A DNA stretch of 64,000 nucleotides from a virus. Within the stretch, counting starts at the first letter, position 1, and every line of letters starts with the position of its first letter. Positions 18,528-40,690 of the stretch are shown one piece after another. Location: the IMG/VR virus record IMGVR_UViG_3300030049_000007; one strand, written 5' to 3'. The position numbers were made by a program, and so were the translations under genes. The notes under the pieces are model-generated. The model was not told the origin of the DNA and ran no database searches. It was given only the letters and a program-made list of their open reading frames with translations.

Positions 18528-18535
18528 AATTTTTA

Positions 18536-20597: not shown

Positions 20598-20612
20598 ATA
20601 TATCTTATAACA
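20594..20612 (-). promoter_or_regulatory. Promoter motif TGTTATAAGATATATGGAG (extended -10)
   Basis: One of three near-identical copies in the window. Confidence 0.7.
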
Positions 20613-20616
20613 GAAT

Positions 20617-21024: not shown

Positions 21025-21049
21025 TATCTCTCCTATGAGATTGGTTGAT

Positions 21050-21125
21050 TGGTCTTCCCACCGTGGCTCGAACACGGGTCTAGAACTTAGAAGGTTCTTG
21101 CTAAATCCAACTCAGCTATGGGAAG
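21050..21125 (-). tRNA. tRNA-Arg(TCT)
   Basis: agaac-CT TCT AA-gttct; CCA. Confidence 0.9.
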
Positions 21126-21133
21126 AAAGTGAA

Positions 21134-21340
21134 TTATCGTTTTAAATTATTCCAAGCAGTTACAGTATCTTCCCATTCTTTATCAAAAGGTCCTAAATAG
21201 TGACAATCTGTACATTCAACATATCTTAATTTAAGTTTACCATTATAAACAACATTGAGTGATTTTTGTAAATCTCCATTTGGATCTATAAATGCTTCAT
21301 TACCTGTATTTTTACATCTAGGACATGGTTTGAAATTCAT
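21134..21340 (-). CDS. Small zinc-finger protein (Lar/restriction-alleviation-like pattern)
   Basis: KPCPRC...YVECTDC...AWN. Confidence 0.55.
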   Translation of the reverse strand: MNFKPCPRCKNTGNEAFIDPNGDLQKSLNVVYNGKLKLRYVECTDCHYLGPFDKEWEDTVTAWNNLKR

Positions 21341-21565
21341 TCATCCTCTCCAATCAATTATCTTATGAGAAAAGTCAGTGTCATAATGATCAAAATCTTC
21401 AATAGTATTTACCAATTTAATATCAGGAAATTTATCCTTTAAATCATTAACTCCATTTGGAGATTTAGAAACCAAAGTATAGTTTGTATCAGTAGGAATA
21501 TAACGAATATATCCACCATATTCCTGATCTGCCATAATTTGAGAATAATATAAATAAGATTTCAT
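21341..21565 (-). CDS. Hypothetical protein
   Basis: GGAG SD; coupled to the downstream ORF. Confidence 0.55.
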   Translation of the reverse strand: MKSYLYYSQIMADQEYGGYIRYIPTDTNYTLVSKSPNGVNDLKDKFPDIKLVNTIEDFDHYDTDFSHKIIDWRG

Positions 21566-21584
21566 ATTATCTCCAAAATTAAAT

Positions 21585-21658
21585 TGGTGGAGTTTACGAG
21601 ACTCGAACTCGTGTTTGAAACTTGCAAAGCTACCGTTCTCCCACTGAACTAAAACCCC
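21585..21658 (-). tRNA. tRNA-Ala(TGC)
   Basis: G3.U70 pair; loop TT TGC AA; CCA. Confidence 0.85.
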
Positions 21659-21661
21659 AAT

Positions 21662-21736
21662 TGGCGTCCTCTGTTAGATTCGAACTAACGACCATCCGGT
21701 TAACAGCCGGAAGCTCTGCCATTGAGCTAAGAGGAC
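21662..21736 (-). tRNA. tRNA-Asn(GTT)
   Basis: Loop CT GTT AA; G73; CCA. Confidence 0.9.
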
Positions 21737-21747
21737 ATTTTATGAAA

Positions 21748-21837
21748 TGGCGGTAGATGAAAGATTCGAACTTTCGGACCCTTTTAAAGGTCGCCGCATT
21801 AGTAGGGCGGTGCTATAGACCACTCAGCCAATCTACC
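21748..21837 (-). tRNA. tRNA-Ser with ACT anticodon (A34)
   Basis: Class II cloverleaf, long variable arm, G73; loop CT ACT AA. Confidence 0.8.
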
Positions 21838-22120
21838 GATTATTGGGAGAATAAATATTCTCCCTAGCAAACTGTCATTATGGCCATCCGGTCATGGTAT
21901 AGTTTGCTAATTTCCATCTTACATAACGAGGCCACATTCAATTCTGTGTGGATTAGTTATGCTATGATGGTGTTTATTTGGCATTCACATTTGATGCCTA
22001 CTCCATAGTATTGTGACGTAGCCCTCGATCGACACCAATTACATTGTGAGGACTTCAACGGGACGTAACTATGCAAGCTGAACTATTCAGAATTGATTGT
22101 CACGCTGAATAGTTCTTTGT

Positions 22121-22210
22121 TGGCGGAAAGCGAGAGATTCGAACTCCCGGTGAGCGTAAACCCACGATAGTTTTCAAGACTATTGCCTTAAACCACTCAG
22201 CCAGCTTTCC
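22121..22210 (-). tRNA. tRNA-Ser(TGA)
   Basis: atagt-CT TGA AA-actat; long variable arm; G73; CCA. Confidence 0.9.
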
Positions 22211-22215
22211 AGTTA

Positions 22216-22650
22216 TTAATCTAATCCAAAATTTTCACGGTAATTTGCTTCTTCTTCAGTTGGAGGATCAAGAATTTCCGGTTGATAATATTCTGAATAA
22301 ATAATTTCCATAGCTTTATCGCCATCTGCATAAAATAAATTTGGATTCGTTATGTTAAATCTATTACAAAAAGATTGACCAATTCTTATATCTTTATAGA
22401 TTTGAACTTCTTTATTATATTCTTTTAAAAAATCGGTAATCTGTTCATGATTTAAATGACAGTATGTAGCTTGTTTTGAAGGGAATTTTTCACCAAACGC
22501 AATCCTTAATTGATAAATCCTTAAAGCACCTTTATTTTTACAAGTTCCCATATAATTAGGAATTTCTTCTTTAGGTTGTGCATTAAAAAATTCCTGCATT
22601 TCCCACAATGCTTTTTCTACATTCTCAATTAGAGTATTAAGATCTTGCAT
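22216..22650 (-). CDS. Hypothetical protein
   Basis: GGAG SD; 'RIGQSFCN...LFY' small phage domain. Confidence 0.6.
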   Translation of the reverse strand: MQDLNTLIENVEKALWEMQEFFNAQPKEEIPNYMGTCKNKGALRIYQLRIAFGEKFPSKQATYCHLNHEQITDFLKEYNKEVQIYKDIRIGQSFCNRFNITNPNLFYADGDKAMEIIYSEYYQPEILDPPTEEEANYRENFGLD

Positions 22651-23164
22651 TGTAATCTCCTTTCTGTTTTTCCAATCTATAAAAAACTTCTTCGAGTAAA
22701 ATAGGTTTAAAATCAGTCCATTCTACACAAACATTTAAATATCTATTATCCATGATTTTATTACTATGCAAGTGACCATGAATATTTCCACCACACCATC
22801 TAGCTAAACTATCAGGATGAATGGGGATATGGGATAATAAATATTTATCAAGTTTATGTGATCCACGAATATCTTTAAAATATTTAGCATATTCTTTTAA
22901 ATCAAAGATATCATGATTACCACGAATTAAAACTTTTCTACCATTTAATTTTTCAAAAATAACTAGATCTCTTTTATGAAAAACAACATCACCTAAATGA
23001 TAGATTTTATCTTCAGGTTTCACTATATCATTCCAATTTTGAACTAAAGCTTCATCCATATCTTTTACATTATTCCAGGGGCGAACTTTAATTCCATCTT
23101 CTTTTAAAAAATTACAAATATTCTCTTGACCAAAATGAGTATCGCTTATTAAATAGACTTTCAT
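22637..23164 (-). CDS. Calcineurin-like metallophosphoesterase
   Basis: SDTHFG, HLGD, GNHD, HGHLH. Confidence 0.9.
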   Translation of the reverse strand: MKVYLISDTHFGQENICNFLKEDGIKVRPWNNVKDMDEALVQNWNDIVKPEDKIYHLGDVVFHKRDLVIFEKLNGRKVLIRGNHDIFDLKEYAKYFKDIRGSHKLDKYLLSHIPIHPDSLARWCGGNIHGHLHSNKIMDNRYLNVCVEWTDFKPILLEEVFYRLEKQKGDYNARS

Positions 23165-23694
23165 AAATACCTATTTTTCTGTTTAGCCCAATATCCTCGT
23201 GGTGGTTTTTCTATTCCATATTTTTTACACCACTTACCAATCATCCTACCACTTACATTATAAAATTTACCTATTTCTTCAGAAGGAATTTTCCAAATGA
23301 TTTTTTCTAAATCTTCTTTAGATGCAATGTCTTTTTCTTGATCTATTCTATAACATTCCACAGAACAATATTGCTTTTCAATAGAATCAGGTTGGAATTC
23401 TTTTTTACAATATCTACAAATTTTTAATTCTAAATAAACTGGATGATGAAGTTTACAATGTTCAGATGATGTTAATATTTCTAAATTTTCTGGATCATTA
23501 TTTAATCTATTTTCGTCTATATGATGTACATGTTCAAAGTCTTCTAAATATCTATTTAATTTATTTTCCATAACTAATCTATGAAAATAAACAGATTTTG
23601 AATTTTTCCATGCATTTGGATGTGTTGGATAATATACCGTTATGTAACCTAAAGGATGAAGTGTTTGTGTAAATGATTTTAAATCATGTAACAT
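23161..23694 (-). CDS. HNH homing endonuclease
   Basis: HRLVME...VHHIDENRLNN..NL; zinc finger and C-terminal HTH (PPRGYW). Confidence 0.9.
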   Translation of the reverse strand: MLHDLKSFTQTLHPLGYITVYYPTHPNAWKNSKSVYFHRLVMENKLNRYLEDFEHVHHIDENRLNNDPENLEILTSSEHCKLHHPVYLELKICRYCKKEFQPDSIEKQYCSVECYRIDQEKDIASKEDLEKIIWKIPSEEIGKFYNVSGRMIGKWCKKYGIEKPPRGYWAKQKNRYL

Positions 23695-23710
23695 ATTTTC
23701 CTTTATAAAT

Positions 23711-23798
23711 TGGAGCCAAGAACAGGATTCGAACCTGCGATGGATTATTAGTCGGCAGCTTACAAGGCTGTTCCCTTCGACCGCTTGGGCATCTTGGC
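23711..23798 (-). tRNA. tRNA with TGT anticodon (Thr), class II-like D-arm and enlarged variable region
   Basis: cagc-CT TGT AA-gctg; GCC..GGC-U-CCA acceptor; 16-nt variable region. Confidence 0.75.
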
Positions 23799-24190: not shown

Positions 24191-24281
24191 CAAGATATTT
24201 AAAGAATATGTCGTGGCTCGCTCCAAATCACGATTATTAAAAGTTTTATCTTTTAATAAAGGTGATTTGATATAATAATCT

Positions 24282-24300
24282 CTCCATATATATTATAACA
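24282..24300 (-). promoter_or_regulatory. Promoter motif TGTTATAATATATATGGAG
   Basis: Identical to the copy at 41821-41839. Confidence 0.7.
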
Positions 24301-24342
24301 AAAAAATGGTGTTTTTTGCGAACATGTGTTATCATAGAACTT

Positions 24343-25014
24343 ATGTCGAACGAACTGATTCTACAATACCAGAAAGATCCAACGAATAAAGAAATCGAAC
24401 AGAAATTACTCGATATGCATGGATCTTATATTAAAGCCAACATTAATAAATGGGCCGGGATAGTCCCTGATATAATCATTCATTCATATGGTAAGAAATA
24501 TGCGTTAGATGCTTTCAAGACTTATAATCCAATTAAAGGATCCATTAACACCCATCTATATAACAATATCTCCCAACTCTCCAGACTAATCTATCAACAC
24601 CAAAATGCAATTCGCTTACCAGAGCAACAGATACAGTTAATCGGAAAAGTTAATGCATCTAGAGATATTCTAACTGATGAATTGGGCCGTGAGCCAACCA
24701 CAGAAGAAATAGCTGATAATTTATCTTTACCAAAAGCACATATAGCTAAAGTAATTAGAAATCAAAGAGCAGATTTTCTAAATGATTCTGATACAGATAT
24801 GCAACATGCTTATGGTGATCATGATAATGAGATAGGAAATAAGATATTTCAATTTAGACAGACTCTGAATGATACAAGAAAAGATCAATTTGATAGTTTT
24901 ACAGGATATAACAACGTAACTCCATTAAGTCCTCAACAATTTGGTTTAAAATTTAAACTTAAACCTTACGAAGTATCAAGACTTAAAACATTATTTGCTA
25001 AAGGGTTAAAATAA
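24343..25014 (+). CDS. Sigma70-family (FliA/SigB-like) phage sigma factor
   Basis: Region 2-like AFKTYNP..G; IRLP; region 3 ELGREPTTEEIADNL; region 4-like C-terminus; probable leaderless ATG at 24343. Confidence 0.8.
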   Translation: MSNELILQYQKDPTNKEIEQKLLDMHGSYIKANINKWAGIVPDIIIHSYGKKYALDAFKTYNPIKGSINTHLYNNISQLSRLIYQHQNAIRLPEQQIQLIGKVNASRDILTDELGREPTTEEIADNLSLPKAHIAKVIRNQRADFLNDSDTDMQHAYGDHDNEIGNKIFQFRQTLNDTRKDQFDSFTGYNNVTPLSPQQFGLKFKLKPYEVSRLKTLFAKGLK

Positions 25015-26156: not shown

Positions 26157-26568
26157 TTTAGATATTACAAATAGAGATTTATACGGAAATGTGACTTTTT
26201 TATTAAAGTCTGCTAGAGTTTATGGTATCGAAAATGTAATTCAGAAAGTAACTACTTGTTTGTTATCATCCAAGAAAACTACTTATTTTGGTAATATATA
26301 TGGCAGCGATGCATTACAGGCTGGTAAATATAATTTTAATGCAGATGGAGTTACAGATTTTAAATTACAAATTACAGATGATTTAGTAAATATTAAAAGT
26401 TCTATTCAAACTGATGAAACTACATATAACATTCCCGTAGCAGATAGATTAAAAGATATAGCTATTCAAGACGTAGTATTTGATAATACAACTTTAACAG
26501 TAAGTTTATCATTGTTAATTTCTACTAATTCTGCTTCCACTATTATTCAATTGCCGGTGAAATCGTGA
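26143..26568 (+). CDS. Baseplate wedge, gp25-like
   Basis: Size 141 aa; GIE.VIQKV...LL pattern; directly before the J-like gene. Confidence 0.55.
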   Translation: MTTINLDITNRDLYGNVTFLLKSARVYGIENVIQKVTTCLLSSKKTTYFGNIYGSDALQAGKYNFNADGVTDFKLQITDDLVNIKSSIQTDETTYNIPVADRLKDIAIQDVVFDNTTLTVSLSLLISTNSASTIIQLPVKS

Positions 26569-28250
26569 ATTCAACAGATCTGATTAAATTTTCAACTGAT
26601 GTATTACAAGCAGATTCTAATTATGCTAATGTAGATTTATCTACATCAGGTGCATTTTACAATTTAACCATTCTACCATTTTCGGTTTTAACAAAGCCAT
26701 TAAGAGATTTGATTAATTCAAATATGAACGCATTAGCATTAGGAACTATGACTAGTGCTCAATTAGATAGTTGGGCTACTAATTTATTTCTTACACGTAG
26801 AACTAATAATTTAATGACCGTAGCTATTACAATTTATTTAACAAATAGTACAGAAACGATAGAACCTTTAATGGTCTATACTACTGATACTTTTACTACA
26901 AATCAGAATAAGATTTTTTATCCAATTCAAGATTATATTTTTATATTTAGTTCATTACCGGTAGATTCAACAGGTAATTATAGATATGCTACCATTATTG
27001 CATCTTCAACTCAGGATTATACAGTTACAGCAGCTAATACAATTAAATCAACTTCTTTAACTCATCCATCACTTTCTTATGTTACAAATGCGGCAGCCTC
27101 TTCAACTCCAATTGAGGCTCAAACAGATACAGACTTTATAACAAGTATTCAGTCTGCAATATCCGCACGAAATAATACTACCGCAAATGCAATTTACACT
27201 AATTTAGAAGCTGCATATACTTCAATAACAGATATTTTAGCTATTGGATATAATGATCCTGAAATGCAGAGAGATATCGCTGTTGCAGCGCGTGATTGGT
27301 CGGGTCACTTTGGTGGAATGACAGATATTTACGTTCGCACTCCACTGACTGCTGTGACGGCTACGGTTACGGGCACTAGAAATTCTACCAACAATGGCTA
27401 CACTTTTATTCTTCGTAAATACGCAGGTTATGATTGGGATTCTATTGATGACTCATCACCCACCCCTCTCTCATTAACCCCCTGGATTGCTGTAACTTCT
27501 ACTAATCCATTACCTTCAATGCCTATAGTATTATTTGACTGGGCAGATACAACAATAACTAACACAACTATAACTACAGCGACCAATGGATTACCAAATG
27601 TATTAGTTGAAGTAATGCCAGATCCAGAATTAAATGCATATGGTAAAAATTATCGTTATTCAATATATGAAAATCTTAGAATAACGGTTTATACAAACAC
27701 AGCAGTAAATTCTTCTGAAACAATTGTATTAGCCTATTCTACTTTATCAAATATTGAAGATATGCAAACATATATGAACTCTTCAGTTGCTAGAGTTTTA
27801 ACTTCTAATAATTTAGTAAAATCTTTCCTTCCAGTTGAGATAAAGGATTTGACTATTGTTTATGATTCTAGTTATACTGTAGATACGACAACGTGGGCAA
27901 CTACTCTTGCTGATTTAATTAATAGCTGGTCATCAACTCAACCAATTAGATTATCTACATTATTAACCGATTTCGTAGCTCCAGTTCGTTTGGATGAAGT
28001 GTGGAGTGATACAACTTCTTCATTACCATATACTTTTGATAGTAATGGCAATATTACTGGAACTAATGTTTCAACATCTTTTCCTTCTTACATAACTATG
28101 TCATTAAATAATATAGATGGTTCTTTTCAATATTATATTTCTACTAGACAGATTTATCCAATGGTCAAAACTGGATTATCTTCAACTTATAGAACTTGTC
28201 GTTATTTTGTAGATTCTTCAAATATTCATTTTGTAGCGGGGACATGGTAA
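26565..28250 (+). CDS. Baseplate J-like wedge protein
   Basis: LD.WATN..LTR, E.QTD..F, IGYNDPEMQRD, GG..DIYV motifs. Confidence 0.7.
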   Translation: MNSTDLIKFSTDVLQADSNYANVDLSTSGAFYNLTILPFSVLTKPLRDLINSNMNALALGTMTSAQLDSWATNLFLTRRTNNLMTVAITIYLTNSTETIEPLMVYTTDTFTTNQNKIFYPIQDYIFIFSSLPVDSTGNYRYATIIASSTQDYTVTAANTIKSTSLTHPSLSYVTNAAASSTPIEAQTDTDFITSIQSAISARNNTTANAIYTNLEAAYTSITDILAIGYNDPEMQRDIAVAARDWSGHFGGMTDIYVRTPLTAVTATVTGTRNSTNNGYTFILRKYAGYDWDSIDDSSPTPLSLTPWIAVTSTNPLPSMPIVLFDWADTTITNTTITTATNGLPNVLVEVMPDPELNAYGKNYRYSIYENLRITVYTNTAVNSSETIVLAYSTLSNIEDMQTYMNSSVARVLTSNNLVKSFLPVEIKDLTIVYDSSYTVDTTTWATTLADLINSWSSTQPIRLSTLLTDFVAPVRLDEVWSDTTSSLPYTFDSNGNITGTNVSTSFPSYITMSLNNIDGSFQYYISTRQIYPMVKTGLSSTYRTCRYFVDSSNIHFVAGTW

Positions 28251-29210: not shown

Positions 29211-32200
29211 GTGATGAATCATCAGATAACTAAAGAAAATACTCAACCAATTATTGATGTTATTCATAATAACATTAAAGAGATTTTTCCTTTAACTGTA
29301 GGTAATAAAACTATAGAAGTAAAGAATATAGAGACAGTTGGTTGGGATAAGGCTGATCCAACCAACTATTATGATATTGCTAATGCAAAAGCACACGATA
29401 AGACTTACGGGGTAAATCTAGTCGCAGATGTAGAGTTATCCCAAGATGGTAAAGTAATAGATAAAAAGAAAATGAAATTAGCTACAGCACCGGTAATGGC
29501 TGGTGATGGAACTTTCATTGTTGGTGGATCACAGTATCAAGTTGATCATCAGTTAAGATTGCGGCCCGGTATTTATTCTCGTATTAAACAGAATGGCGAA
29601 ATTGAAGCACATGTAAATCCAAATGGTTTTAAAAATTTACGTTTAGCCGTAGACCCCGCTACAAAGAAATTAACTGTAAATGTAAATCAGGCAAATATTA
29701 ATGCTATTCCAGTATTAAGAATTCTTGGTATTTCTGATACTGAAATTAAAAAATCATTTGGTGATGATGTATATGATGCTAATATTAAAATTCTTGGCAA
29801 GAAGGGTGATGAAGAAATTAAACGTTTCTTTAAATCCGTTCATCCTTATGATGAATTACCGGAGACTAATAAGTTAATAGCAGAACATTTATCTCTCTCA
29901 CTAAGAGAAGCTAAACTAGATCCTAAAGTAACTAAAATTACATTAGGTCAAGAATATGATCACGTTAATGGAAATGCTTTATTAAGAGGATTTCAGAAAG
30001 TAATTAATGTTTCTCGTGGAACTGAACAACCTGATGATCGTGATGCATTAGCATTTAAAACTATTCATTCAGTTGAAGATTTTGTTAATGAACGATTAAA
30101 GAAAAATAAGAAATCAATTCAATTTGCTATTCAGAATAGAATGCGTAAAAATGATAAACTTGATCAGATTATGAATTCTGGTCATATTAATCAGCATGTA
30201 TTCTCATTTTTTAATTCTGCTGCACTTTCAGAAATTCCTTCACAGATTAATCCATTATCAGTAATTAATAGTTCATTTAAAACTACTATTACTGGTGAAG
30301 GTGGTATTGAAAATGCAGAATCAATTATGCCAGAATCTCAAGCCTTACATCCTAGTCATTTAGGATATCTTGATCCAATCAATACTCCTGAGTCAAAAAA
30401 GATTGGTGTTACTTTAAATTTAGCTATTGGAACTACTAAAAAAGGAAATGAACTTCTCAGTAAATTTAGAAACATAAAAACTGGTAAAGAAGAAGATATT
30501 TCAACTATCGATGCTTATCATAAAGTTATTGCTTTACCCGGTCAAGAATTAAAAGGTCAAGTAACTGCTATTAAACATGGCAAACAAGTAGAAGTTGATG
30601 CTAGTGAAGTTACTCATGAGCTTCCTAATGCCTATTCGGCCTTTACTATGGCTTCTCAGGCATTACCTGCAATGAATCATAATCAGGGTAATAGAGCTGG
30701 AATGGCCTCTAGACATATTAATCAGGCTATCTCACTTAAACATCGTGAAGCACCTTTAGTTCAAGTTCAATCACCACTTTCCAAAGACATGAGTACTGAA
30801 GAATTTTTTGGTAAAAAATTCCAAATTGCGCTTCATGCTAGAAATGAAGATGGAATTATTCAAGATATTACTAAATCACATATTATCTTTAAAGGTGATA
30901 GTGGTAAGGTATATGAATATCCTATTTTTAATAATTTTGATCTACAAAATAAATCTTATTTACATCATGAAATTGAAAATCTTAAAATAGGCGATAGATT
31001 TAAAAAGGGTGATCTTATTGCCGATTCTAATTTTAGTAAAGGTGGCGTATTGTCACTCGGAACTAATCTTCGAACTGCTTATATGCCATGGAAAGGTTTA
31101 AATTTTGAAGATGGCATTGTAGTATCCGAATCAGCAGCTAAAAAATTAACTTCAAATCATTTATTTCAAGATAATATCGATAAAGATAATGATTCGGTAT
31201 TAGTTAATAAAAGAAAATTTGTAACCTTATATCCATCTAAATATACAAAAGCTCAATTAGATAAAATTAGTGATAATGGAATAGTAAAGGAAGAAGTTAC
31301 TTTACAACCAGGGGATCCTTATGCTTTAGTATTACATAAGGCTCAGGGGACTCAAGAAGATCTTATGTTAAATAGATTACATAAATCTCTTGTACAACCT
31401 TATAAAGATATGTCTAAAACTTGGGAACAGTTAACTCCCGGAAAAATTACTAGATCAGTAGAAAATACCAGAAATGTAAAGATTCATGCTAAATATGAAG
31501 CACCTGCAATTATAGGTGATAAACTTGCATTAAGACATGGTAATAAGGGAGTCATTACCTCAATAGTTGCAGATAAAGAAATGCCTACTACTAAAGAGGG
31601 TAGATCTACCGAGGTATTAATTAGTCCCTTAAGTATTGTTACTCGTATGAGTCTTGGTCAAATGTTGGAAAATTCTGCAAGTAAAATTGCAGAAAAAACT
31701 GGTAAACCTTATATTATTGAAAATTTTTCAAAAGATAATCAATTAGAAAAAATTAAAAATGATTTAAAGAAACATAATATATCGGATACGGAAGAATTAT
31801 TTGATGAACATGGAAATTCTTTTGGACAAGTGTTAGTAGGAAGTCCATTAATTGAAAAATTATTTAAGACTGCAAAAGCTAACGTTTCCGCTAGAGACAG
31901 TGGTGCCTATGATATAGATAATAAGCCAATTAAGGGTGGTGAGGATGGTTCGAAGGCTATCGACCAATTGACTCTTTATGGCTTATTATCGCACGGTGCG
32001 CGAGGCATTATTAATGAGGTTAGCACGGTCAAGGGTGATGGAAACGCCCAGTTTTGGCAGAATCTCCAAAATGGCTTACCCATACCTAAACCTCAAGTTC
32101 CATTTGTATATAAGAAATTTGAAGCAATGCTTCATGCTGCTGGTATTAATGTTAGACATGATGGTTCTAGAAAAATATTATTACCTCTAATTGATTCTCA

Positions 32201-35198
32201 AATAGATGAATTAGCTGGAGATAACGAAATTGAATCTTTTGGTATGTTAGATCATAATTTTGAACCAATCAAAGATGGGTTGTTTGATCGTCATACAACT
32301 GGTGGTTCAAATGGTGATAAATGGGCAAAAATTACATTAGCTCATCCATTAGTTAATCCAATGTATGAAAATGCTGTCAAAACCATCTTAGGTCTTAAGG
32401 ACTCTGAATTTAAAACAATTATAAAATTGGAAGGTGGTCATGATAAAATTAAAGGAATGTTGGCTAATCTCAATGTTCATGAGCAGATTGATAATCTTAC
32501 GGCAGGTATCAAGACTGCGCCGAAAACTAAAAAAGATAAGCTGGTTAAACAACTTAAAATTTTCAAGTCACTTGATTCACTCAAGCTCTCTCCCGTTAAC
32601 GCTTATATTACTTCCGTGGTTCCGGTTGTCCCTCCTACTTTCAGACCTATCTTTGAAATTCCCGGTGGGCATGTACAAACACATAGTTTAAATAATTTAT
32701 ATAGAGATTTGGGTTTAATTAATAATACTATCAAAGAGCTTGGACGTACTCCTGAATTGACAGATGCACTTTATAATTCTCTGGGTGCAATTCAGGGTGT
32801 AAATAATCCAATTACTAAACAAAATGAAATTAAAGGTGTTAAGGGTGCCATTCAAATTATCACAGGATCTGGTTCACCTAAATATGGGTTCTTTCAAAAT
32901 AAAACATTACGTAAACAACAGGATTTATCAGGAAGAGCAACTGCTGTATTAAATAATAATCTTAATATGGATCAAATTGCTATTCCTGAAAAAATTGCTA
33001 AAGTAATTTACAAGCCATTTGCTATTAAAGAATTAATTAAAAATGGTTATAGTTATCAAGAATCTGTAGATCATATAGATCATTTAGATAATATTGGAAA
33101 AAAGGCTGTTCAAGCTGCGATGTCAGATCGTCCAGTGTTAATGAATCGCGCTCCATCATTACATAAATTTTCAATTATGGCATTTCAGCCAACATTAACT
33201 AAAAATCTTTCTATTGAAGTTCCAGGGCTTATCGTTAAACCTTTTTCATTAGATTTTGATGGAGATACATTAGTTCTGCATGTGCCAGCTACCGAAAAAG
33301 CACGTAAAGAATCTTTTGGATTAATGCCAAGTAAGAATTTATATAATCCTAGAATGCGTACTTTAAATTATGCTCCAGATCAGGGAGCTATTCTAGGATT
33401 GCATTTACTTTCTCAAACTGAAGAAGGTTTAGTTAAGATAAATGATTTATTTCCAAAAGATATTTTGCCTATTGGTTCAAAAATTACTAAAAAGATGGTG
33501 GATAAAATACTTGCAAATTTAGCAGAAAAGTATCCAGAAAAATATAATGAAATTACTACCAAATTAAAACAAATGGGCGATACTTATGCTACTAAAGCAG
33601 GATTTTCTTTATCCTTAGCAGATCTTCCTAATAATTCTAAAGAAGTTAATAAAGAATATAAATCTGCTGTAGGTTTATTAAAATCAAAATCATTAAGCGA
33701 TGAAATTAAACTAAACGCTTTACTTAAAGCTGATAAATTTATTAAAGATAATGCATTAAATGACAAAACTAATAATTTTGTGACTATTGTAGCTTCTGGT
33801 TCTAGAGGATCGTCTGAACAGATAAAACAGATGTTATTTGCCCCTGGAGTTATGAGTGATCATAATGGAGATCCATTACTTCATCCAGTTTTAACTAATT
33901 ATTCACAAGGTATGCCCTTTAACGATTATTGGACTACTTTATATTCTGCACGTAAAGCTGCTTTAGATAAACAGTTAATGACTGCTAAACCTGGCGCTTT
34001 AAATAAAGAGGTAGTAAATACTACAATGAGTATTGTAATATCGGAAAATGATTGTGGAACTAAATTAGGTATTCCTATGAATACCGATGATAATAATCTT
34101 GTAGGAAGATATTTAACGAATGGCACATTAGTGAATAAAAGTAATATAGAATCTATACGTGATAAACATAAAGAAGTAATAGTTAGATCACCTACCACCT
34201 GTAGGGCATCACATGGGATTTGTCAGAAATGCTTTGGTATTGATGAATATGGTAAACTTCCAGATATTGGTCATAATGTTGGAATTAAATCAGCTCAAGC
34301 AGCAACAGAACCTTTAACTCAGGCAGCTATGAAAACTTTCCATATGGGTGGAACGGTTTCTGGTGGTGGTGGTGTATTTGGTGGTTTTGAACATGTCAAT
34401 AATTTTCTCGTTTCTCCAGAAACTTTTAAAGATCGAGCTACGTTATCAAAATTAGATGGAAAGATTACAAGTATAACTCCAGGGTCTGCCGGTGGTTTCC
34501 ATGTTAATGTAAATGAACAAGATCATTTTATAACTCCTGGCTCTGGTAGTCTTAAAGTTAAAGAAGGTGATAAAGTAAAGAAAGGCGATTTATTAAATAA
34601 TGGTATTCCTCATCCTAAAGAAGCTATACATCTTTTAGGTGAATTAGGTGGGCTTCATAAAATTACAGAGACTCTTCATAATATTTATAAAAATTCTGGC
34701 ATTTCTATTGATAGAAGAAATTTAGAGACAATTGTTAGAGGTATGACAGGATTTGGAATAGTAGAAGATGAAGGAACTCATAAACATTTCGTAAAGGGAG
34801 ATGTAGTACCTTTAAGTCAAATTTATGAATTTAATACAACAACTAATAAATCCTATAAATTACCTTTAAATGATGCTTTTGGAAAAAGTTTAGATGAAAA
34901 TATCGGATCTTTTAAAATTGGAAATATAGTTAATTCTAATATGATTAAATCTTTACAAAAAACACATAAAGAAATTACTGTAAAGGAAAATCCTGTAACT
35001 TATGAACGTACCTTACTGGGAGTACAGCAAGCACCACTTAAGTCTCACGACTGGGCTAATCAGCTTGCTTTCCGATATCTCAAACGTGGTTTGCAGGAAG
35101 GATCAACTTATGGTTATTCTTCAGATGTTCATGGATATTCTCCTATAGCTCCATTTGTTACTGGTCAAATGGAAGATGGACCAGAAGGAAGATATTAA
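29211..35198 (+). CDS. Single-chain fused beta-beta' DNA-directed RNA polymerase
   Basis: Beta motifs GTFIVGG, TPES..IG, GLNFEDG, GDKLALRHGNKG; beta' motifs DLSGR, NRAPSLH, DFDGD, SGSRG, CGT..C..C..C, EPLTQ..MKTFHMGG. Confidence 0.95.
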   Translation: MMNHQITKENTQPIIDVIHNNIKEIFPLTVGNKTIEVKNIETVGWDKADPTNYYDIANAKAHDKTYGVNLVADVELSQDGKVIDKKKMKLATAPVMAGDGTFIVGGSQYQVDHQLRLRPGIYSRIKQNGEIEAHVNPNGFKNLRLAVDPATKKLTVNVNQANINAIPVLRILGISDTEIKKSFGDDVYDANIKILGKKGDEEIKRFFKSVHPYDELPETNKLIAEHLSLSLREAKLDPKVTKITLGQEYDHVNGNALLRGFQKVINVSRGTEQPDDRDALAFKTIHSVEDFVNERLKKNKKSIQFAIQNRMRKNDKLDQIMNSGHINQHVFSFFNSAALSEIPSQINPLSVINSSFKTTITGEGGIENAESIMPESQALHPSHLGYLDPINTPESKKIGVTLNLAIGTTKKGNELLSKFRNIKTGKEEDISTIDAYHKVIALPGQELKGQVTAIKHGKQVEVDASEVTHELPNAYSAFTMASQALPAMNHNQGNRAGMASRHINQAISLKHREAPLVQVQSPLSKDMSTEEFFGKKFQIALHARNEDGIIQDITKSHIIFKGDSGKVYEYPIFNNFDLQNKSYLHHEIENLKIGDRFKKGDLIADSNFSKGGVLSLGTNLRTAYMPWKGLNFEDGIVVSESAAKKLTSNHLFQDNIDKDNDSVLVNKRKFVTLYPSKYTKAQLDKISDNGIVKEEVTLQPGDPYALVLHKAQGTQEDLMLNRLHKSLVQPYKDMSKTWEQLTPGKITRSVENTRNVKIHAKYEAPAIIGDKLALRHGNKGVITSIVADKEMPTTKEGRSTEVLISPLSIVTRMSLGQMLENSASKIAEKTGKPYIIENFSKDNQLEKIKNDLKKHNISDTEELFDEHGNSFGQVLVGSPLIEKLFKTAKANVSARDSGAYDIDNKPIKGGEDGSKAIDQLTLYGLLSHGARGIINEVSTVKGDGNAQFWQNLQNGLPIPKPQVPFVYKKFEAMLHAAGINVRHDGSRKILLPLIDSQIDELAGDNEIESFGMLDHNFEPIKDGLFDRHTTGGSNGDKWAKITLAHPLVNPMYENAVKTILGLKDSEFKTIIKLEGGHDKIKGMLANLNVHEQIDNLTAGIKTAPKTKKDKLVKQLKIFKSLDSLKLSPVNAYITSVVPVVPPTFRPIFEIPGGHVQTHSLNNLYRDLGLINNTIKELGRTPELTDALYNSLGAIQGVNNPITKQNEIKGVKGAIQIITGSGSPKYGFFQNKTLRKQQDLSGRATAVLNNNLNMDQIAIPEKIAKVIYKPFAIKELIKNGYSYQESVDHIDHLDNIGKKAVQAAMSDRPVLMNRAPSLHKFSIMAFQPTLTKNLSIEVPGLIVKPFSLDFDGDTLVLHVPATEKARKESFGLMPSKNLYNPRMRTLNYAPDQGAILGLHLLSQTEEGLVKINDLFPKDILPIGSKITKKMVDKILANLAEKYPEKYNEITTKLKQMGDTYATKAGFSLSLADLPNNSKEVNKEYKSAVGLLKSKSLSDEIKLNALLKADKFIKDNALNDKTNNFVTIVASGSRGSSEQIKQMLFAPGVMSDHNGDPLLHPVLTNYSQGMPFNDYWTTLYSARKAALDKQLMTAKPGALNKEVVNTTMSIVISENDCGTKLGIPMNTDDNNLVGRYLTNGTLVNKSNIESIRDKHKEVIVRSPTTCRASHGICQKCFGIDEYGKLPDIGHNVGIKSAQAATEPLTQAAMKTFHMGGTVSGGGGVFGGFEHVNNFLVSPETFKDRATLSKLDGKITSITPGSAGGFHVNVNEQDHFITPGSGSLKVKEGDKVKKGDLLNNGIPHPKEAIHLLGELGGLHKITETLHNIYKNSGISIDRRNLETIVRGMTGFGIVEDEGTHKHFVKGDVVPLSQIYEFNTTTNKSYKLPLNDAFGKSLDENIGSFKIGNIVNSNMIKSLQKTHKEITVKENPVTYERTLLGVQQAPLKSHDWANQLAFRYLKRGLQEGSTYGYSSDVHGYSPIAPFVTGQMEDGPEGRY

Positions 35199-35467: not shown

Positions 35468-37207
35468 ATGTCCTTAAACGAATTATTCGTCTTAAATTCA
35501 TCCATTCGTTTATCGGCTGATATGAATAGTTGGGGCGATCAAGTTATAAGCCAACTTATTAAATCATATCCGTCGCTCTCAAGTTTGGTGGGAGAAGTTG
35601 TTTTCGCCAAGACCGATACCGTAAAAGGTAATGCATTGGGATACATTACTTTAATCGGTAAAGTTCAGAGGATTCCATTTATTGTCGATGAATATGATCT
35701 AAATCCATTAGACATATATATAGACAATGGTAAATATCTACCTCTTTCAGAAAGAGCAGTTAATAGTTTAAATTCTAGAACTTGGCCCTTTCGTCTTATA
35801 TCCCAAACAGAAAGAAATGGAATTCTTAAGACTGCTTCGTTATTCGAGAATAATGGCATTTTGAAGGCAGAGTTTGTAAAAAAGAATAAAGAAACTTTTG
35901 AAAAAATTGCTGCTGAGTTTCCAGAAATTTTAGATAACTTTACTATCCGCAATACTCAGAAGGCCAATTCTGAATTTGCAGTACGTTGTTTTATTAAAGA
36001 AGCCGCAGATGCAAAACCAATTGTGGTCCGCGATCTTATTGCTGAAGATAAAGATTATAAAATTTCAGAATTTGCTGATAAATTCGGAAAAGATTTTCTT
36101 TCTGAATTAATGAGTAAGGGTGAAGCTATTGTTTCAAATATGCCTCCTAAAGTTAGATTAGCAATTGATAGTATGGAAATTAAGGGACTTTATAAAACTT
36201 CTGAAAATAGAGAAGGTTATCTTTGGCATAATGGAACTCCAATCGTAGCCAAGAGATTTGATCATTATCGTATGTCTGATTTAAAACGATCATCTATAGC
36301 TCCCTCTATTATTATAACAGAATGTGGCAAGTATTTTCAAAATGGAACATTAACAACTAAAGATGCCGGCAACGTTCCTAAGCATAAAGATAAGGTAGCT
36401 CCACAAAATGGTGATTATGCAGTAATTACCATTGGAGATAGTTGCTTTGGTCCATTTTTTATTAATAGTATTACAAAAATGGGTGCTGATAAAATTTACA
36501 ATATTACTACTGATGAATTAAAAGTAGTAAATCTTAAGACTAGTGAAGATATTAAAACTATAGTACAGTTAGATGAGAATAATTATTTATTCTCACAGAA
36601 TGCTCAGATTTTTAAAATTCATGTATCTGATATTGAGAATCCAAAAGATTTTGTTAAATCTGCTGGTTTGAAAGTTTCAGTATCAAAGCAGTTAGATGGT
36701 AACTTCTTAATTAGTGATTCTGGAATTTCTGGAATAGATTCTAATAAACTGAAAAATTTAAAGAAGGGTGATGCTACGGTAGTTTTAATGCATTGTGGCT
36801 TATCTGAGACAGATGCTAAATATGCCCTGATGCGGGCATTAACTAATAATACTTATTCTTTTGATGCACCAGAAAAACAGAAAGTTTCCTCAGATAAAGA
36901 TGTAACCTTAGAAAAGAAGGCTGAGGAAATTGTAAGTTACTGTAATGAAAATGAAGTATTAAAAATGGCCGCTGTGAGTGGCGATAAATCTAACGTGGAT
37001 TTAGCCTTGGGACTTAATTTAATTAATTATAGTAATATTAAACGATTTAAATTAATAGTTCCAGAAATTTATACTATGTTAGATAAATTATGTAAATTAC
37101 TAATTATTAAGCGCATTAATCGTAATTTATTTAACTTAGATGATACTCAACTTTCTCAAGCCATTCGCGCTTTGGACGAGATTTCGTTTGCCCTTAATTC
37201 CTTGTGA
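35468..37207 (+). CDS. Putative head/inner virion protein with multiple K-x-A sites
   Basis: LKTAS, EKIAA, IKEAA, VKSAG, EKKAE, LKMAA; GGAG SD. Confidence 0.55.
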   Translation: MSLNELFVLNSSIRLSADMNSWGDQVISQLIKSYPSLSSLVGEVVFAKTDTVKGNALGYITLIGKVQRIPFIVDEYDLNPLDIYIDNGKYLPLSERAVNSLNSRTWPFRLISQTERNGILKTASLFENNGILKAEFVKKNKETFEKIAAEFPEILDNFTIRNTQKANSEFAVRCFIKEAADAKPIVVRDLIAEDKDYKISEFADKFGKDFLSELMSKGEAIVSNMPPKVRLAIDSMEIKGLYKTSENREGYLWHNGTPIVAKRFDHYRMSDLKRSSIAPSIIITECGKYFQNGTLTTKDAGNVPKHKDKVAPQNGDYAVITIGDSCFGPFFINSITKMGADKIYNITTDELKVVNLKTSEDIKTIVQLDENNYLFSQNAQIFKIHVSDIENPKDFVKSAGLKVSVSKQLDGNFLISDSGISGIDSNKLKNLKKGDATVVLMHCGLSETDAKYALMRALTNNTYSFDAPEKQKVSSDKDVTLEKKAEEIVSYCNENEVLKMAAVSGDKSNVDLALGLNLINYSNIKRFKLIVPEIYTMLDKLCKLLIIKRINRNLFNLDDTQLSQAIRALDEISFALNSL

Positions 37208-38136: not shown

Positions 38137-39183
38137 ATGTTAATGTCTGAATTTTTCGTAAGAGATTTAGATCCAGAAATGGGTACCGCAGTAGCAAATC
38201 GCACCTATTTACGCCGAGGGGAAAACTGGGGAGATTTGGCTAAGCGAGTTGCATTAGGTAACTCTTTACTAGACCCATCAGGAGAAAATGATAGATTGGA
38301 TTTAGAAAAAGCTATTTGCAATGCATCATTTCTTACTGCGGGTCGGCATCTTCAACATGGGGATGCAGACCAACCTAATCGAAACATAGAAGTTTTCACA
38401 AATTGTTCAACAGCTTGCACTTCTTTTATGGAATTTTTGTTACTTTTAAATGGTTCAGGTGTTGGACGTAATTATAGTGATGAATTTATGGTAACTGACT
38501 GGCGGAACATGCCGCATCTTTATTGCGTATTAAGTGCGGATCATCCTGATTTTGAAAGACAATATTTTAAAGATTATACTCCTAAAGTTAATGTAATTGC
38601 TTTAGAAGATGTTGAAGCTTATCCACAGAATCCAGATCTATTTCATGAAGTAGAAGATAGCCGTGAAGGATGGGCTAAAGCTTTAGAAATTTTAGAAGTT
38701 GCTGCATTTGAAAAACATCCTCATGATCATTATGTTTTTGATTTTAGTAAAATTCGTAAATACGGATCACCTATTAAAGGTATGCAGAATAGACCTGCTT
38801 CAGGACCATTACCTTTAATTTACGCTTTTAAACAAGTTGCTAAAGTTAAATATAATCAAGGAATGATGCCATGGATGCAGACAATAGTTATAGATCATTA
38901 TTTCTCAGAGGCAGTAGCGAACGGCGGAGCAAGAAGGTCTGCACGAATCGCAGTTAAATACTGGAGAGATAAAGAAATAATGAAATTTATTCATCTTAAG
39001 AGAGATAGACCAGAACTTTGGTCATCGAACGATTCTGTAGGAGTAGAAAATTTATTCTGGAAAGAAGCAAAAATTCTAGGATCAACTGCTAATAATCTTT
39101 ACTTAGAAATTACCAAAAGTGTATTTCAAGATCTTACTGGTGAACCAGGTCTTATCGCGCTTGATCAATTGACCATCAAATAA
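38137..39183 (+). CDS. nrdJ: Class II ribonucleotide reductase, N-terminal half
   Basis: RTYLR, AGRHL, TNC, GSGVG, DSREGW, SGP.PL, RRSA, GEPG. Confidence 0.85.
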   Translation: MLMSEFFVRDLDPEMGTAVANRTYLRRGENWGDLAKRVALGNSLLDPSGENDRLDLEKAICNASFLTAGRHLQHGDADQPNRNIEVFTNCSTACTSFMEFLLLLNGSGVGRNYSDEFMVTDWRNMPHLYCVLSADHPDFERQYFKDYTPKVNVIALEDVEAYPQNPDLFHEVEDSREGWAKALEILEVAAFEKHPHDHYVFDFSKIRKYGSPIKGMQNRPASGPLPLIYAFKQVAKVKYNQGMMPWMQTIVIDHYFSEAVANGGARRSARIAVKYWRDKEIMKFIHLKRDRPELWSSNDSVGVENLFWKEAKILGSTANNLYLEITKSVFQDLTGEPGLIALDQLTIK

Positions 39184-39197: not shown

Positions 39198-40643
39198 ATG
39201 ATTGGATCTACTAAATATCAATTATCAGAAGGTGCAAAAAAGCTTCATGAATATACATCTAATATAATTAATAAATCCAAATATCCTCATATTACTAATC
39301 CATGCGTAACTAAAGATACTCAGATTACAACTACTGATGGAATTAAATTAGTTTCTGAATTAATTGGAATCCCATTTTCCGTGAAATTTAATGGTAAAAT
39401 TTATCAATCATTAAAAGGATTCTGGTCAACAGGTAAAAGAGATATTTATAATATAACTACGAAAAATAAATCAATTAAAGCTACACCTAATCATAAATTT
39501 GGAACACATGGATATACTGGATTAGTTTGGAAAAGATTAGATGCATTTAAGGTTGGTGACTTCATTGCAACTGATGGATTAGATGAAAAAATAGTTTCAA
39601 TTACTAAATGTGATAGTGAGGAAGCTTTTGACTGTACCATTGAAGATATTCATTGCTATGTTTCTAATGGATTCTTGAGCCATAATTGTGGTGAGATCAC
39701 ATTGAAATCTGATGGCGGCTATTGTGTCATAGGGGATATCGTACCTTTTTTCTGTTCTACTTTAGATGAAGTTAAATCAACGGCAGAATTAGCTACTCGA
39801 TTTTTAATTAGAACAAATCTTATGAGTGCAATTTATTCTGATGAAGTAAAACGGACTAATCGTATCGGAATTGGAATGACATCAATTCACGAGTTTGCCT
39901 GGAAATTCTTTGGCTATGGTTTTCGTGATTTAATTGATGAGAATCTATCTCAACCATTCTGGAATTTTATTGACGAGCTACGGCAGACGGCAGAAAATGA
40001 AGCGGCCAGATACTCGCTGTCACTTAGTTTAAATATCCCACATACCGTAACCACCTTGAAGCCGAGCGGATCTATAAGTAAGCTATATAATTTAACTGAG
40101 GCAGCTCACCTTCCCTATAAACGTTATTATTTACGATGGGTTCAATTCCAAAAAGATGATCCTCTTTTAGAACAATATAAAAAAGATGGATATCCAGTAA
40201 GAGAATTAACTAGTATAGCTTCTACTAGTATTGTTGGATTTCCAACTCGTCCTCTTATTACTACTTTAGGAATGGGAGATAAATTAGTTACCGCTGCTGA
40301 AGCTACTCCAGAAGAACAGTATAAGTGGTTGATGTTATTAGAGAAATATTGGTTAGGAGAAGGAAAAAACAATCAGGTGAGCTATACTCTTTCCATACCT
40401 ACTGATAAATTCACATTAGAAGACTTTAGGGAAACGTATATTAAATATCAATCTCAAATTCGTTGTTGTACAGTATTACCAATTATTAGTGATGATACTC
40501 TTAAAACGTTATATGAATATCTTCCTAATGAGGATATATCTGAAGAAGAATTTATTGCTATTCAAAATCATATTCAGAAGAAACGGGATGTGGAATTTAG
40601 TATGGATGAGTTACAGTGTAGTTCTGGTGCATGTCCTCTCTGA
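39198..40643 (+). CDS. nrdJ: Class II ribonucleotide reductase, C-terminal half, intein-containing
   Basis: TNP[intein]CGEI, RIGIG, TLKPSGS; C-terminal CSSGACPL; own AAGGA SD. Confidence 0.85.
   Translation: MIGSTKYQLSEGAKKLHEYTSNIINKSKYPHITNPCVTKDTQITTTDGIKLVSELIGIPFSVKFNGKIYQSLKGFWSTGKRDIYNITTKNKSIKATPNHKFGTHGYTGLVWKRLDAFKVGDFIATDGLDEKIVSITKCDSEEAFDCTIEDIHCYVSNGFLSHNCGEITLKSDGGYCVIGDIVPFFCSTLDEVKSTAELATRFLIRTNLMSAIYSDEVKRTNRIGIGMTSIHEFAWKFFGYGFRDLIDENLSQPFWNFIDELRQTAENEAARYSLSLSLNIPHTVTTLKPSGSISKLYNLTEAAHLPYKRYYLRWVQFQKDDPLLEQYKKDGYPVRELTSIASTSIVGFPTRPLITTLGMGDKLVTAAEATPEEQYKWLMLLEKYWLGEGKNNQVSYTLSIPTDKFTLEDFRETYIKYQSQIRCCTVLPIISDDTLKTLYEYLPNEDISEEEFIAIQNHIQKKRDVEFSMDELQCSSGACPL
39303..39686 (+). 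mobile_element. Mini-intein (128 aa, no homing endonuclease)
   Basis: Starts CVTKDT; block B ATPNHKF; ends SHN before the catalytic Cys. Confidence 0.9.
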
Positions 40644-40660: not shown

Positions 40661-40690
40661 AGAAAAGCCCCATTACTGGGGCTTTATTTA
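40661..40690. terminator. Bidirectional terminator
   Basis: AAAGCCCCA-TTAC-TGGGGCTTT between convergent genes. Confidence 0.8.

Follow-up and report, generated by a model that had tools for sequence, protein, structure and literature searches.

A predicted single-chain beta-beta' RNA polymerase with a sigma-70-family partner in a family of phages

The DNA of an uncultured large tailed phage analysed here (IMG/VR record IMGVR_UViG_3300030049_000007, 64,000 nucleotides in full length, termed the window in the following) carries at 29214-35198 on the plus strand one intact open reading frame (ORF) of 1994 aa, in which RNA polymerase beta is followed in the same frame by beta', and a sigma factor gene is located about 4 kb upstream of it. 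The two probably constitute a two-gene holoenzyme, i.e., an active beta-beta' single-chain core with its own sigma, that is independent of the host polymerase, and they look like the transcription machine of a very large phage family; we infer both the catalytic activity of the polymerase and its use of the sigma factor. Cellular-type RNA polymerases are thought to need an alpha dimer for their assembly, and bacterial RNA polymerases carry a zinc ribbon in beta' and an invariant NADFDGD loop. The fused family has dispensed with all three (alpha, the zinc ribbon and the invariant NADFDGD), yet it is under strong purifying selection and has kept a sigma-type partner.

The polymerase gene can be read from GTG 29211 (1995 aa) or from ATG 29214 (1994 aa); the ATG, which lies 5 nt after AAGGG and is also used in the public gene call P0002 (1994 aa), is the likelier start. 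An earlier note on this DNA had described one frame of 1995 aa with beta before beta', which is borne out by the ORF and by the order of the Pfam domains (beta domains Rpb2_3 and Rpb2_6 at aa 344-909, beta' domains Rpb1_1, 2, 4 and 5 at aa 1100-1717; five of these six cellular domains were matched above the cut-off). In public assemblies, 61 indexed blocks contain the identical gene (24 contigs with the gene were read), and a search of the 64-kb window for a second, paralogous copy found none. The elements recognised in the gene are as follows:

29214-32168 (+), beta module, aa 1-986, without the inserts bi4, bi9 and bi11 (alignment)
30213-30305 (+), counterpart of rifampicin cluster I, with Q513E, D516S, H526S, R529K and S531T (E. 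coli numbering; alignment)
31353-31391 (+), flap-tip helix, aa 715-727, predicted dock of sigma domain 4
31512-31550 (+), GDK...RHGNKG with the two beta active-site lysines, aa 768-780 (alignment; Rpb2_6 E 3.5e-39)
32142-32189 (+), fusion junction, beta C-end GINVRHDGS passing into beta' N-end RKILLPL with no linker
32169-35198 (+), beta' module, aa 987-1995, without SI3, jaw and C-terminal tail shortened (alignment)
32286-32321 (+), Cys-free short loop DRHTTGGSNGDK, replacing the beta' zinc ribbon (E. coli residues 68-99), a confident loop in the model
32661-32798 (+), lid and clamp helices, aa 1151-1196, tip 7 residues shorter than in Salmonella, predicted dock of sigma domain 2
33243-33266 (+), catalytic loop FSLDFDGD, Asn458 to Ser and Ala459 to Leu, three Asp kept
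33924-34025 (+), bridge helix, aa 1572-1605 (alignment)
34053-34232 (+), second zinc site, Cys1615, Cys1664, Cys1671 and Cys1674
34290-34409 (+), trigger loop without the SI3 insert, aa 1694-1733, TFH kept (alignment)

The phage protein (1995 aa) compares with 2749 aa for the Salmonella beta and beta' pair, and most of this gap corresponds to the lineage-specific inserts bi4, bi9 and bi11 and to SI3 of beta', which are absent in the phage. The smallest bacterial pairs sampled (Saccharibacteria) measure about 2290 aa from stop to stop, only about 13% more than the phage protein, and the statement that it is far shorter than a cellular pair is thus true, albeit mostly trivial.

The magnesium triad DFDGD (aa 1348-1352) occupies positions 33252-33266, exactly as the earlier note had it, and the complete NADFDGD signature is not present in the polymerase, the alignment showing SLDFDGD instead. 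The alteration is, however, not special to this gene: among the 121 family members compared the Asp triad is invariant (121/121), and the Asn position is occupied by Asn in about half, by Gly in about a third and by Ser in about 14, with Thr, Cys and Arg occurring as well. In cellular enzymes this Asn contacts the ribose of the incoming NTP. Because both this residue and beta His1237 are Ser in the phage polymerase (alignment), its kinetics or substrate choice may differ. DGLFD (aa 1022-1026) and TTGG (aa 1029-1032) are followed by WAKITLAHP (aa 1038-1046) with the four-Cys domain missing, a reading that agrees with the alignment to Salmonella beta', whose zinc ribbon (residues 68-99) has no counterpart here, and with the cysteine count. 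The only cysteines of the whole polymerase are the four of the second zinc site (none precedes aa 1615), which align with E. coli Cys 814, 888, 895 and 898 of beta'; the alignment likewise confirms that this site, the bridge helix and the trigger loop were kept. The substitutions in the counterpart of rifampicin cluster I fall at known resistance positions, from which the polymerase is predicted to be insensitive to rifampicin.

Structure prediction had been named in the earlier note as a check: in an AlphaFold2 model of aa 600-1440 (pLDDT 87, pTM 0.78) a confident beta-hairpin spans the junction between beta and beta', and the model resembles bacterial, cyanobacterial and plastid beta'/beta structures. 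The linker-free junction and the deletion of the zinc ribbon are common to all 13 family members aligned.

No alpha-like family was found among the 30 window ORFs scanned with Pfam (20 of alpha size and 10 neighbours of the polymerase gene, a set that covers small ORFs of omega size in part), and PF01000, PF01193 and PF01192 had no match in a 168.6-kb relative (100% complete by CheckV) or in Salmonella phage Arash, the controls matching in 14 of 14 genomes. The absence of alpha and omega genes, as the earlier note had claimed it for the window, is therefore also seen in these two genomes, and we infer that the polymerase is independent of alpha. Both the complete relative and Arash possess one polymerase gene, which is compatible with a packaged as well as with an unpackaged enzyme.

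The earlier interpretation was supported as to the single-chain phage enzyme, and missed the sigma gene, the relatives in culture (Arash, D69) and the particle proteome of Arash. The sigma gene is:

24316-25014 (+), sigma-70-family factor, 232 aa (223 aa in the public call), homologue of Arash Gp10

Its Sigma70_r3 match exceeds the cut-off of Pfam; among the relatives of the protein, region 3 was matched in 46 of 47 and region 4 in 11 of 47, and region 2 is not recognisable by sequence and is seen by fold only. The model (pLDDT 90) consists of three helical domains and a disordered linker, and Foldseek returned a probability of 1.0 against SigA, SigB and SigS chains over 225-280 columns. As modelled, the product of 24316-25014 is a factor with sigma2 (by fold only), sigma3 and sigma4 domains and a flexible 3.2 linker. 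The position of the sigma gene 5' of the polymerase gene is conserved in relatives whose polymerases are 80%, 70% and 49% identical (sigma identity 62-41%). Because of the sigma-70-family gene 4 kb upstream, promoter specificity most likely resides in the sigma factor.

The predicted complex of sigma and core scored 0.67 (best of three controls, 0.00); 58 of 80 solved complexes and 2 of 110 mismatched pairs attain the mark applied to such scores. At least 85% of the contacts were common to the prediction runs, with a partner pLDDT of at least 77, and the predicted contacts involve the lid and clamp helices (aa 1146-1190) and the flap tip (aa 714-727). The pass speaks for likeness to a holoenzyme, not for binding, and may reflect memory, since sigma-core complexes are a textbook pair already solved.

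A family search with the polymerase returned 894 proteins, the weaker matches including bacterial beta' chains, and among the best 120 of the 894 almost every one is a fused chain with a length of about 2000 aa; the family occurs in contigs of very different samples and MAG labels. Two proteins of the close clade that consist of beta' only and are nearly full-length (985 and 1026 aa) may be real splits, artefacts of gene calling or cuts at contig ends, and the other matches for split beta'-only forms are mostly short fragments on small contigs. In the literature we found no description of this phage family.

The earlier note had referred to a reported metagenomic lineage of tailed phages with fused polymerases, which we take to be the mReC (multisubunit-RNAP-encoding Caudovirales from metagenomes; Weinheimer & Aylward 2020, PMC7481178). 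In the mReC rows consulted, this does not hold: beta (about 1000-1365 aa, one of 1563 aa) and beta' (about 900-1040 aa) are separate ORFs, in contrast to the one ORF of the window, and the word "fused" in the text of that paper refers only to crAssphage (PMC7481178). The mReC, too, are metagenomic tailed phages; their bacterial-like, deep-branching beta and beta' resemble the window protein in compactness (e.g., 1009 + 915 aa). Their capsids are T4 gp23-like and four IMG/VR relatives of the window do not occur in the mReC tables (PMC7481178); a capsid search of the relatives with PF07068 gave no match, the control search also matching nowhere.

Cobetia phage Carin-5 and the Yersinia phages YerA41 and vB_Yru_GN1 also encode bacterial-type beta (about 1083 aa) and beta' (about 927 aa), and in Carin-5 an annotated sigma factor gene is located directly upstream of the beta and beta' operon (vB_Yru_GN1 has an unannotated 200-aa ORF at this position); they differ from the window in their unfused genes, an identity of about 24-25% and a separate long branch in the tree. 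The phiKZ/AR9-type enzymes are likewise two-barrel, cellular-type phage polymerases that work without alpha and omega, one of the two phiKZ/AR9 sets being packaged in the virion (review PMC7598289). They are split into four to five polypeptides in two paralogous sets and have no sigma, promoters being recognised by a phage-specific subunit, whereas the window has one chain, one copy and a sigma; the distinction from split phiKZ-type enzymes drawn in the earlier note thus stands (one ORF, one copy per complete genome, sigma present). The crAss-like gp66-type enzymes, YonO and the P23-45 enzyme fused to the tape measure protein have both barrels in one polypeptide, and some are virion-borne, but by published accounts their homology to cellular beta and beta' is hard to see, unlike in the window protein with its six matched cellular Pfam domains and sigma-type partner. 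The bacterial core with a group-3-like sigma corresponds to the phage pair in domain order, active-site elements, second zinc site, flap tip, clamp helices and predicted sigma docking; the phage enzyme differs from it in lacking alpha, omega, the zinc ribbon and the lineage-specific inserts, in the variable Asn458 and in its low identity (23-29%).

Arash (OQ632216.1; PMC10585845) and the Vibrio phages D69, D181 and D148 fall in the same clade as the window polymerase (support 100), with about 30% identity over the full length. Their genomes measure 181-187 kb and, as in the window, beta is joined to the N-terminal half of beta'; the window polymerase has the traits of this group, namely the linker-free join, the missing zinc ribbon and a Gp10-type sigma (Arash Gp10, E 7e-16). 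Its ORF is uninterrupted, whereas in the Arash/D69 group a break after about aa 1400 divides the polymerase into two pieces (about 1525 and 606 aa), between which lie nine genes in Arash (pieces Gp206 and Gp216) and a 640-nt gap with two small ORFs in D69; in D181 and D148 a homing endonuclease lies under the polymerase match. In the Arash paper the annotation reads "subunit beta", and there is no discussion of a fusion (PMC10585845). Arash also has a homologous Gp13-like neighbour, which in the window is:

26565-28250 (+), homologue of Arash Gp13 ("structural protein"), 561 aa

This 561-aa ORF was first expected to be the portal because the portal gene precedes the polymerase gene in Arash; profile comparison gave the portal a probability of 0.2%, the match being to Gp13 instead. 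The window polymerase gene does not come after a portal gene as that of Arash does, and in the complete relative the portal homologue is located about 100 kb away from the polymerase, which does not adjoin it.

In the Arash particle preparation, Gp206 was represented by 3516 spectra, the most of all proteins (PMC10585845). Unique peptides per 100 aa, computed from the data of that paper (PMC10585845), amount to 8.4 for Gp206, 6.6 for Gp216 and 10.3 for the sigma Gp10, compared to 5.5 for the portal and 1.4 for ribonucleotide reductase alpha; Gp13, Gp217 and Gp218 were likewise well detected, and homologues of both the window sigma and the 561-aa protein (Gp10 and Gp13) are thus found in Arash particles. 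The preparation comprised 116 of 272 proteins, including metabolic enzymes, reductases and ligases, its authors allow for carry-over of abundant proteins, and no CsCl step for the particles was found in the text of the paper (PMC10585845). As the Arash polymerase and sigma are among the best-detected particle proteins, virion carriage of polymerase and sigma is plausible, if unproven.

In the reading that we prefer, the single beta-beta' polypeptide would act as a DNA-dependent RNA polymerase core, and the covalent join would likely replace the alpha-dimer platform and omega in holding the two halves together, because it is placed where the termini already meet in cellular enzymes. The phage sigma (24316-25014) would supply promoter recognition, with domain 2 on the clamp helices, domain 4 on the flap tip and the linker running past the rudder much as in a bacterial holoenzyme, and a phage of about 160-170 kb would thereby transcribe its own genome without the host enzyme. 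The step of which we are least certain, with even chances, is virion packaging of the enzyme and its sigma, followed by their injection to initiate early transcription. A self-sufficient pair (a core without alpha, omega and zinc ribbon plus a minimal sigma) that is carried in the capsid, injected and serves the whole infection is doubtful; if this reading were true, no sigma-dependent RNA polymerase of the cellular type smaller than this pair would be known, and the relaxed ribose-sensing Asn would suggest that substrate selection is altered. Should the pair be active as an enzyme of two proteins, it would offer a compact and probably rifampicin-insensitive model for the co-folding of large subunits, the roles of the zinc ribbon and Asn458 and the workings of a minimal sigma, and would represent a second route to independence from host transcription for phages of 160-190 kb. 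The fused, sigma-partnered family naturally complements the split phiKZ enzymes, which have no sigma, and with Arash and D69 as cultured relatives these questions are directly testable.

Bacterial fusions of rpoBC exist and are joined at the same termini as the phage protein (Helicobacter-type model NF007172; a 2284-aa fused gene in the Paceibacterota MAG L020), and a recent capture of such a gene, or of an rpoBC operon, might be considered; its probability is nevertheless negligible. Out of at least 597 bacterial loci, the best 80 share only 23-29% identity with the phage polymerase and spread over many phyla, the NCBIfam equivalog scores are far under their cut-offs (e.g., 390 vs 963 for rpoC), and in the tree one side (support 100) comprises all 34 bacterial pairs, among them L020, and the other (support 100) the fused phage family, so that the nesting within a bacterial rpoBC clade against which the earlier note had cautioned is not seen; the zinc-ribbon deletion and linker-free junction of the aligned family members argue in the same direction. 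The tree results from a quick LG+G4 search with SH-aLRT support and no archaeal outgroup and is silent on branch depth. The replacement of the universally conserved Asn of NADFDGD and of beta His1237 could also indicate a polymerase-derived structural protein without catalytic activity, which is highly improbable given that the three Asp, both beta lysines, R425, the bridge helix and the trigger-loop His are all kept, the Asp triad in all 121 relatives and the others (R425 within NRAPSLH) in 13 of 13 aligned members, and that dN/dS is 0.13 and 0.20 over the whole length of the gene (against the 80%- and 70%-identical relatives).

Alpha is still present alongside the natural rpoBC fusions of bacteria (Helicobacter) as well as alongside fusions engineered in E. 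coli, and recruitment of host alpha by the phage protein could still occur; a hybrid enzyme that needs host alpha, perhaps also omega, is nonetheless unlikely. Omega docks at the C-terminal tail of beta' in cellular enzymes, and this tail (Salmonella residues 1347-1400) largely has no counterpart in the alignment of the phage polymerase; the diversity of samples and MAG labels would argue against dependence on the alpha of one host, and enzymes of the phiKZ/AR9 type are active without alpha and omega (PMC7598289). A model in which the same enzyme and sigma are not packaged, host polymerase transcribing the early genes, the block with the polymerase gene among them, and the phage holoenzyme the middle and late genes in a T7-like manner, has a chance somewhat short of even. 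It accords with the fact that the polymerase gene and a class II ribonucleotide reductase gene share one co-oriented block, with no strong internal terminator, ribonucleotide reductase being typically an early or middle phage gene. The missing linkage of polymerase and portal in the clade of the window, the breadth of the Arash particle proteome and a sigma-70-like promoter match at 24267-24296, just 5' of the sigma gene (such matches occurring at chance frequency), also agree with the unpackaged model. The detection of both Arash polymerase pieces and of sigma at a density like that of the portal and several-fold over the reductase speaks against it, as does that of the neighbours Gp13, Gp217 and Gp218, and favours packaging of polymerase and sigma in the virion.

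Sigma-70-type promoter matches in general were not above chance (83 found vs 93.5 expected), and no 9- or 10-mer that might represent a phage promoter motif was common to at least four of 27 upstream regions. Two further features are located downstream of the polymerase gene:

35468-37207 (+), 579-aa protein, next gene after the polymerase
40664-40685 (no strand), bidirectional terminator-like hairpin, closing the plus-strand block that begins with the sigma gene (consensus match only)

The 579-aa protein is also the next gene after the polymerase in three relatives (L003, L004 and L006), and in a further one (L005) its homologue is found some 3.9 kb further on. A weak relationship links the protein to Gp218 of Arash and to the corresponding D69 protein (hhalign 61%, E 8e-5), both of which come after the polymerase in those genomes.

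The frame at 29211-35198 (+ strand) is open over 1995 codons, with the likelier start at ATG 29214, which is preceded five bases upstream by AAGGG and used by the public gene call (P0002, 1994 aa). Pfam places the domains in the following order:

aa 344-909, Rpb2_3 and Rpb2_6 (beta domains)
aa 1100-1717, Rpb1_1, 2, 4 and 5 (beta' domains)

A beta then beta' chain in one frame was what the earlier note had described; its motif coordinates were all exact on re-check, and its observation is confirmed, its interpretation only in part. The closest solved structures are bacterial beta' chains (E ~1e-80). Values of dN/dS (0.13 against an 80%-identical relative, 0.20 against a 70%-identical one) indicate that the gene is not dead.

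The window polymerase and 12 family members were aligned with Salmonella beta plus beta'. At the junction, the beta end GINVRHDGS (aa 978-986) passes into the beta' start RKILLPL with the linker absent; in an AlphaFold2 model of aa 600-1440 (mean pLDDT 87, pTM 0.78) the junction is predicted with confidence as a two-stranded hairpin, and the model, a structure prediction proposed in the earlier note, superposes on beta'/beta of bacteria, cyanobacteria and plastids. Relative to Salmonella the chain lacks the lineage-specific inserts bi4, bi9, bi11 and beta' SI3, part of the jaw and the beta' C-terminal tail (1347-1400). The beta' Cys4 zinc ribbon (Salmonella beta' 68-99) has no counterpart either, as had been noticed before, and a 12-residue Cys-free loop stands in its place in all members examined. 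The polymerase has four cysteines in total, which make up the second zinc site (exactly four were counted in 73 of the 99 intein-free relatives). This site, the bridge helix and the trigger loop (with TFH) had been listed as kept and were all found, together with R425 (NRAPSLH), the Asp triad, GDK/RHGNKG, the lid, the rudder, the flap-tip helix and slightly shortened clamp helices. Substitutions include Asn458 to Ser, Ala459 to Leu and beta His1237 to Ser; those in the rifampicin pocket (Q513E, D516S, H526S, S531T) suggest that the enzyme would be rifampicin-resistant.

A protein search with the polymerase returned 894 proteins, the best 120 of which are nearly all fused chains of ~2000 aa, encoded on contigs of phage size that reach 186 kb; the window's own polymerase occurs in 61 indexed blocks of public assemblies, where contigs reach 160 kb. 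Across 121 family members the three catalytic Asp are invariant, and the Asn position of the loop varies (N in ~60, G in ~40, S in ~14). The altered catalytic motif reported earlier is therefore real as a Ser-Leu change, but it is one state of a relaxed site rather than a unique substitution. This large family, which includes cultured members, is so far uncharacterised. Inteins (PF14528, PF14890) or homing endonucleases occur within or next to the polymerase gene of many members (e.g., the protein calls P0037, P0046, P0055 and P0065, and Vibrio phages D181 and D148); this gene is a frequent target of selfish elements.

A genome scan of 185,579 species found at least 597 bacterial loci matching the polymerase; the best 80 of these, from many phyla, share 23-29% identity with it, and its NCBIfam equivalog scores lie far under the cut-offs. 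A tree of 71 rows and 1876 columns, built by a quick IQ-TREE search under LG+G4, put 34 bacterial pairs, Patescibacteria and a fused Paceibacterota gene among them, on one side of a branch (support 100) and the fused phage family with Arash and D69 in another clade (support 100), with the unfused enzymes of phages Carin-5 and GN1 on a separate long branch. The phylogeny, which the earlier note had named as a check, thus places the family outside the bacterial side, and nesting in bacteria was not seen; the tree carries no archaeal outgroup, so branch depth is not readable from it and we make no claim on the depth of the phage branch. Identity, NCBIfam scores and tree together argue that the gene was not borrowed from bacteria. 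A Candidatus Paceibacterota MAG (L020:163-7014) also has beta and beta' in one 2284-aa frame; it sits among other Patescibacteria in the tree and is therefore an independent bacterial fusion.

Five lines of evidence assign the product of 24316-25014 (+ strand) to the sigma-70 family. Its region 3 scores above the Pfam cut-off, 1099 representative clusters are related to it, and of 47 relatives 46 matched region 3 and 11 matched region 4. The predicted model (pLDDT 90) folds into three helical domains plus a disordered linker, and Foldseek matched it to SigA, SigB and SigS chains with probability 1.0. The protein is homologous to Arash Gp10, and three relatives likewise have the sigma gene upstream of their polymerase gene. 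Modelled against polymerase residues 640-1400, the pair scored 0.67, while none of three controls exceeded 0.00; 58 of 80 solved complexes reach this mark, as do 2 of 110 mismatched pairs. At least 85% of contacts were shared between runs (partner pLDDT at least 77), with sigma residues 47-61 predicted on the lid and clamp helices (aa 1146-1190), domain 4 on the flap tip (aa 714-727) and other contacts along the rudder. Sigma-core complexes have already been solved, and the pass may reflect them; the prediction shows that the canonical sigma-core geometry is compatible with this pair, which is compatibility and not binding.

One polymerase gene each was present in a CheckV-complete 168.6-kb relative and in Arash, and a search of these two genomes found no alpha or omega (control genomes matched 14/14); the 30 window ORFs scanned with Pfam held no alpha-like domain, in agreement with the first reading of the window. 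A published fused metagenomic lineage, also proposed there, does not fit the rows examined for multisubunit-RNAP-encoding Caudovirales (mReC) in Weinheimer & Aylward 2020 (PMC7481178), which give beta and beta' as separate ORFs; that paper applies "fused" to crAssphage only. Jumbo-phage polymerases are split and sigma-less according to reviews (including PMC7598289), whereas the window enzyme is one chain with a sigma. Literature text searches found no description of a fused, sigma-partnered polymerase family. The window enzyme is of a known kind, a phage polymerase of cellular type that lacks alpha and omega, present here as one chain with a sigma.

Only four cultured relatives were found (~30% identity), Salmonella phage Arash and Vibrio phages D69, D181 and D148; their gene is interrupted after ~aa 1400, giving pieces of ~1525 and 606 aa, whereas the window gene is uncut. 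In Arash and D69 the cut lies between two stretches, one ending at aa 1403 that matches the cyanobacterial rpoC1 model and one starting at aa 1429 that matches rpoC2, and selfish elements may be the source of this split. Arash Gp7 ("structural protein", 226 aa; L105:7446-7880) resembles the bridge-helix to trigger-loop part (27% identity to window polymerase aa 1566-1722, E 6e-7), a part already present in Arash Gp216; no such paralogue was found in the window.

Whether the polymerase is packaged in the virion we judge to be nearly evenly balanced. In the Arash particle proteome, Gp206 tops all proteins in spectra. Per 100 aa, Gp206 gave 8.4 unique peptides, Gp216 6.6 and the sigma 10.3, where the portal gave 5.5 and reductase alpha 1.4; the preparation yielded 116 of 272 proteins, and its authors allow for carry-over (PMC10585845). 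The window gene is not adjacent to the portal and lies in one block with reductase genes; its neighbours match the Arash particle proteins Gp13 (clearly) and Gp218 (weakly).

The window is phage DNA, with tail proteins, ribonucleotide reductase, ligase, exonucleases, helicase and 13 tRNAs. Further features are:

16961-23798, - strand, 13 tRNA genes (Gln, Pro, Val, Gly, Ile, Lys, Glu, Arg, Ala, Asn, 2 Ser, Thr)
22637-23164, - strand, metallophosphoesterase-like gene
23161-23694, - strand, HNH endonuclease (PF13392 in the same contig's public annotation)
38137-39183 and 39198-40643, + strand, ribonucleotide reductase (phrog_367), two adjacent ORFs
53265-54344, - strand, transposase-family gene, 359 aa (phrog_506, E 4e-73)

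The tRNA cluster coincides with a rise in G+C to 0.38-0.42 (window average 0.31). The reductase gene may be split or intein-containing, since its second ORF has a weak intein-splicing match in the public annotation. The transposase gene adjoins a short stretch of raised G+C (0.38 at 54-56 kb) and may therefore mark a mobile element inside the phage genome. The HNH and phosphoesterase genes stand just before the divergent region preceding the sigma gene, and the Arash homologue of the latter is Gp58.
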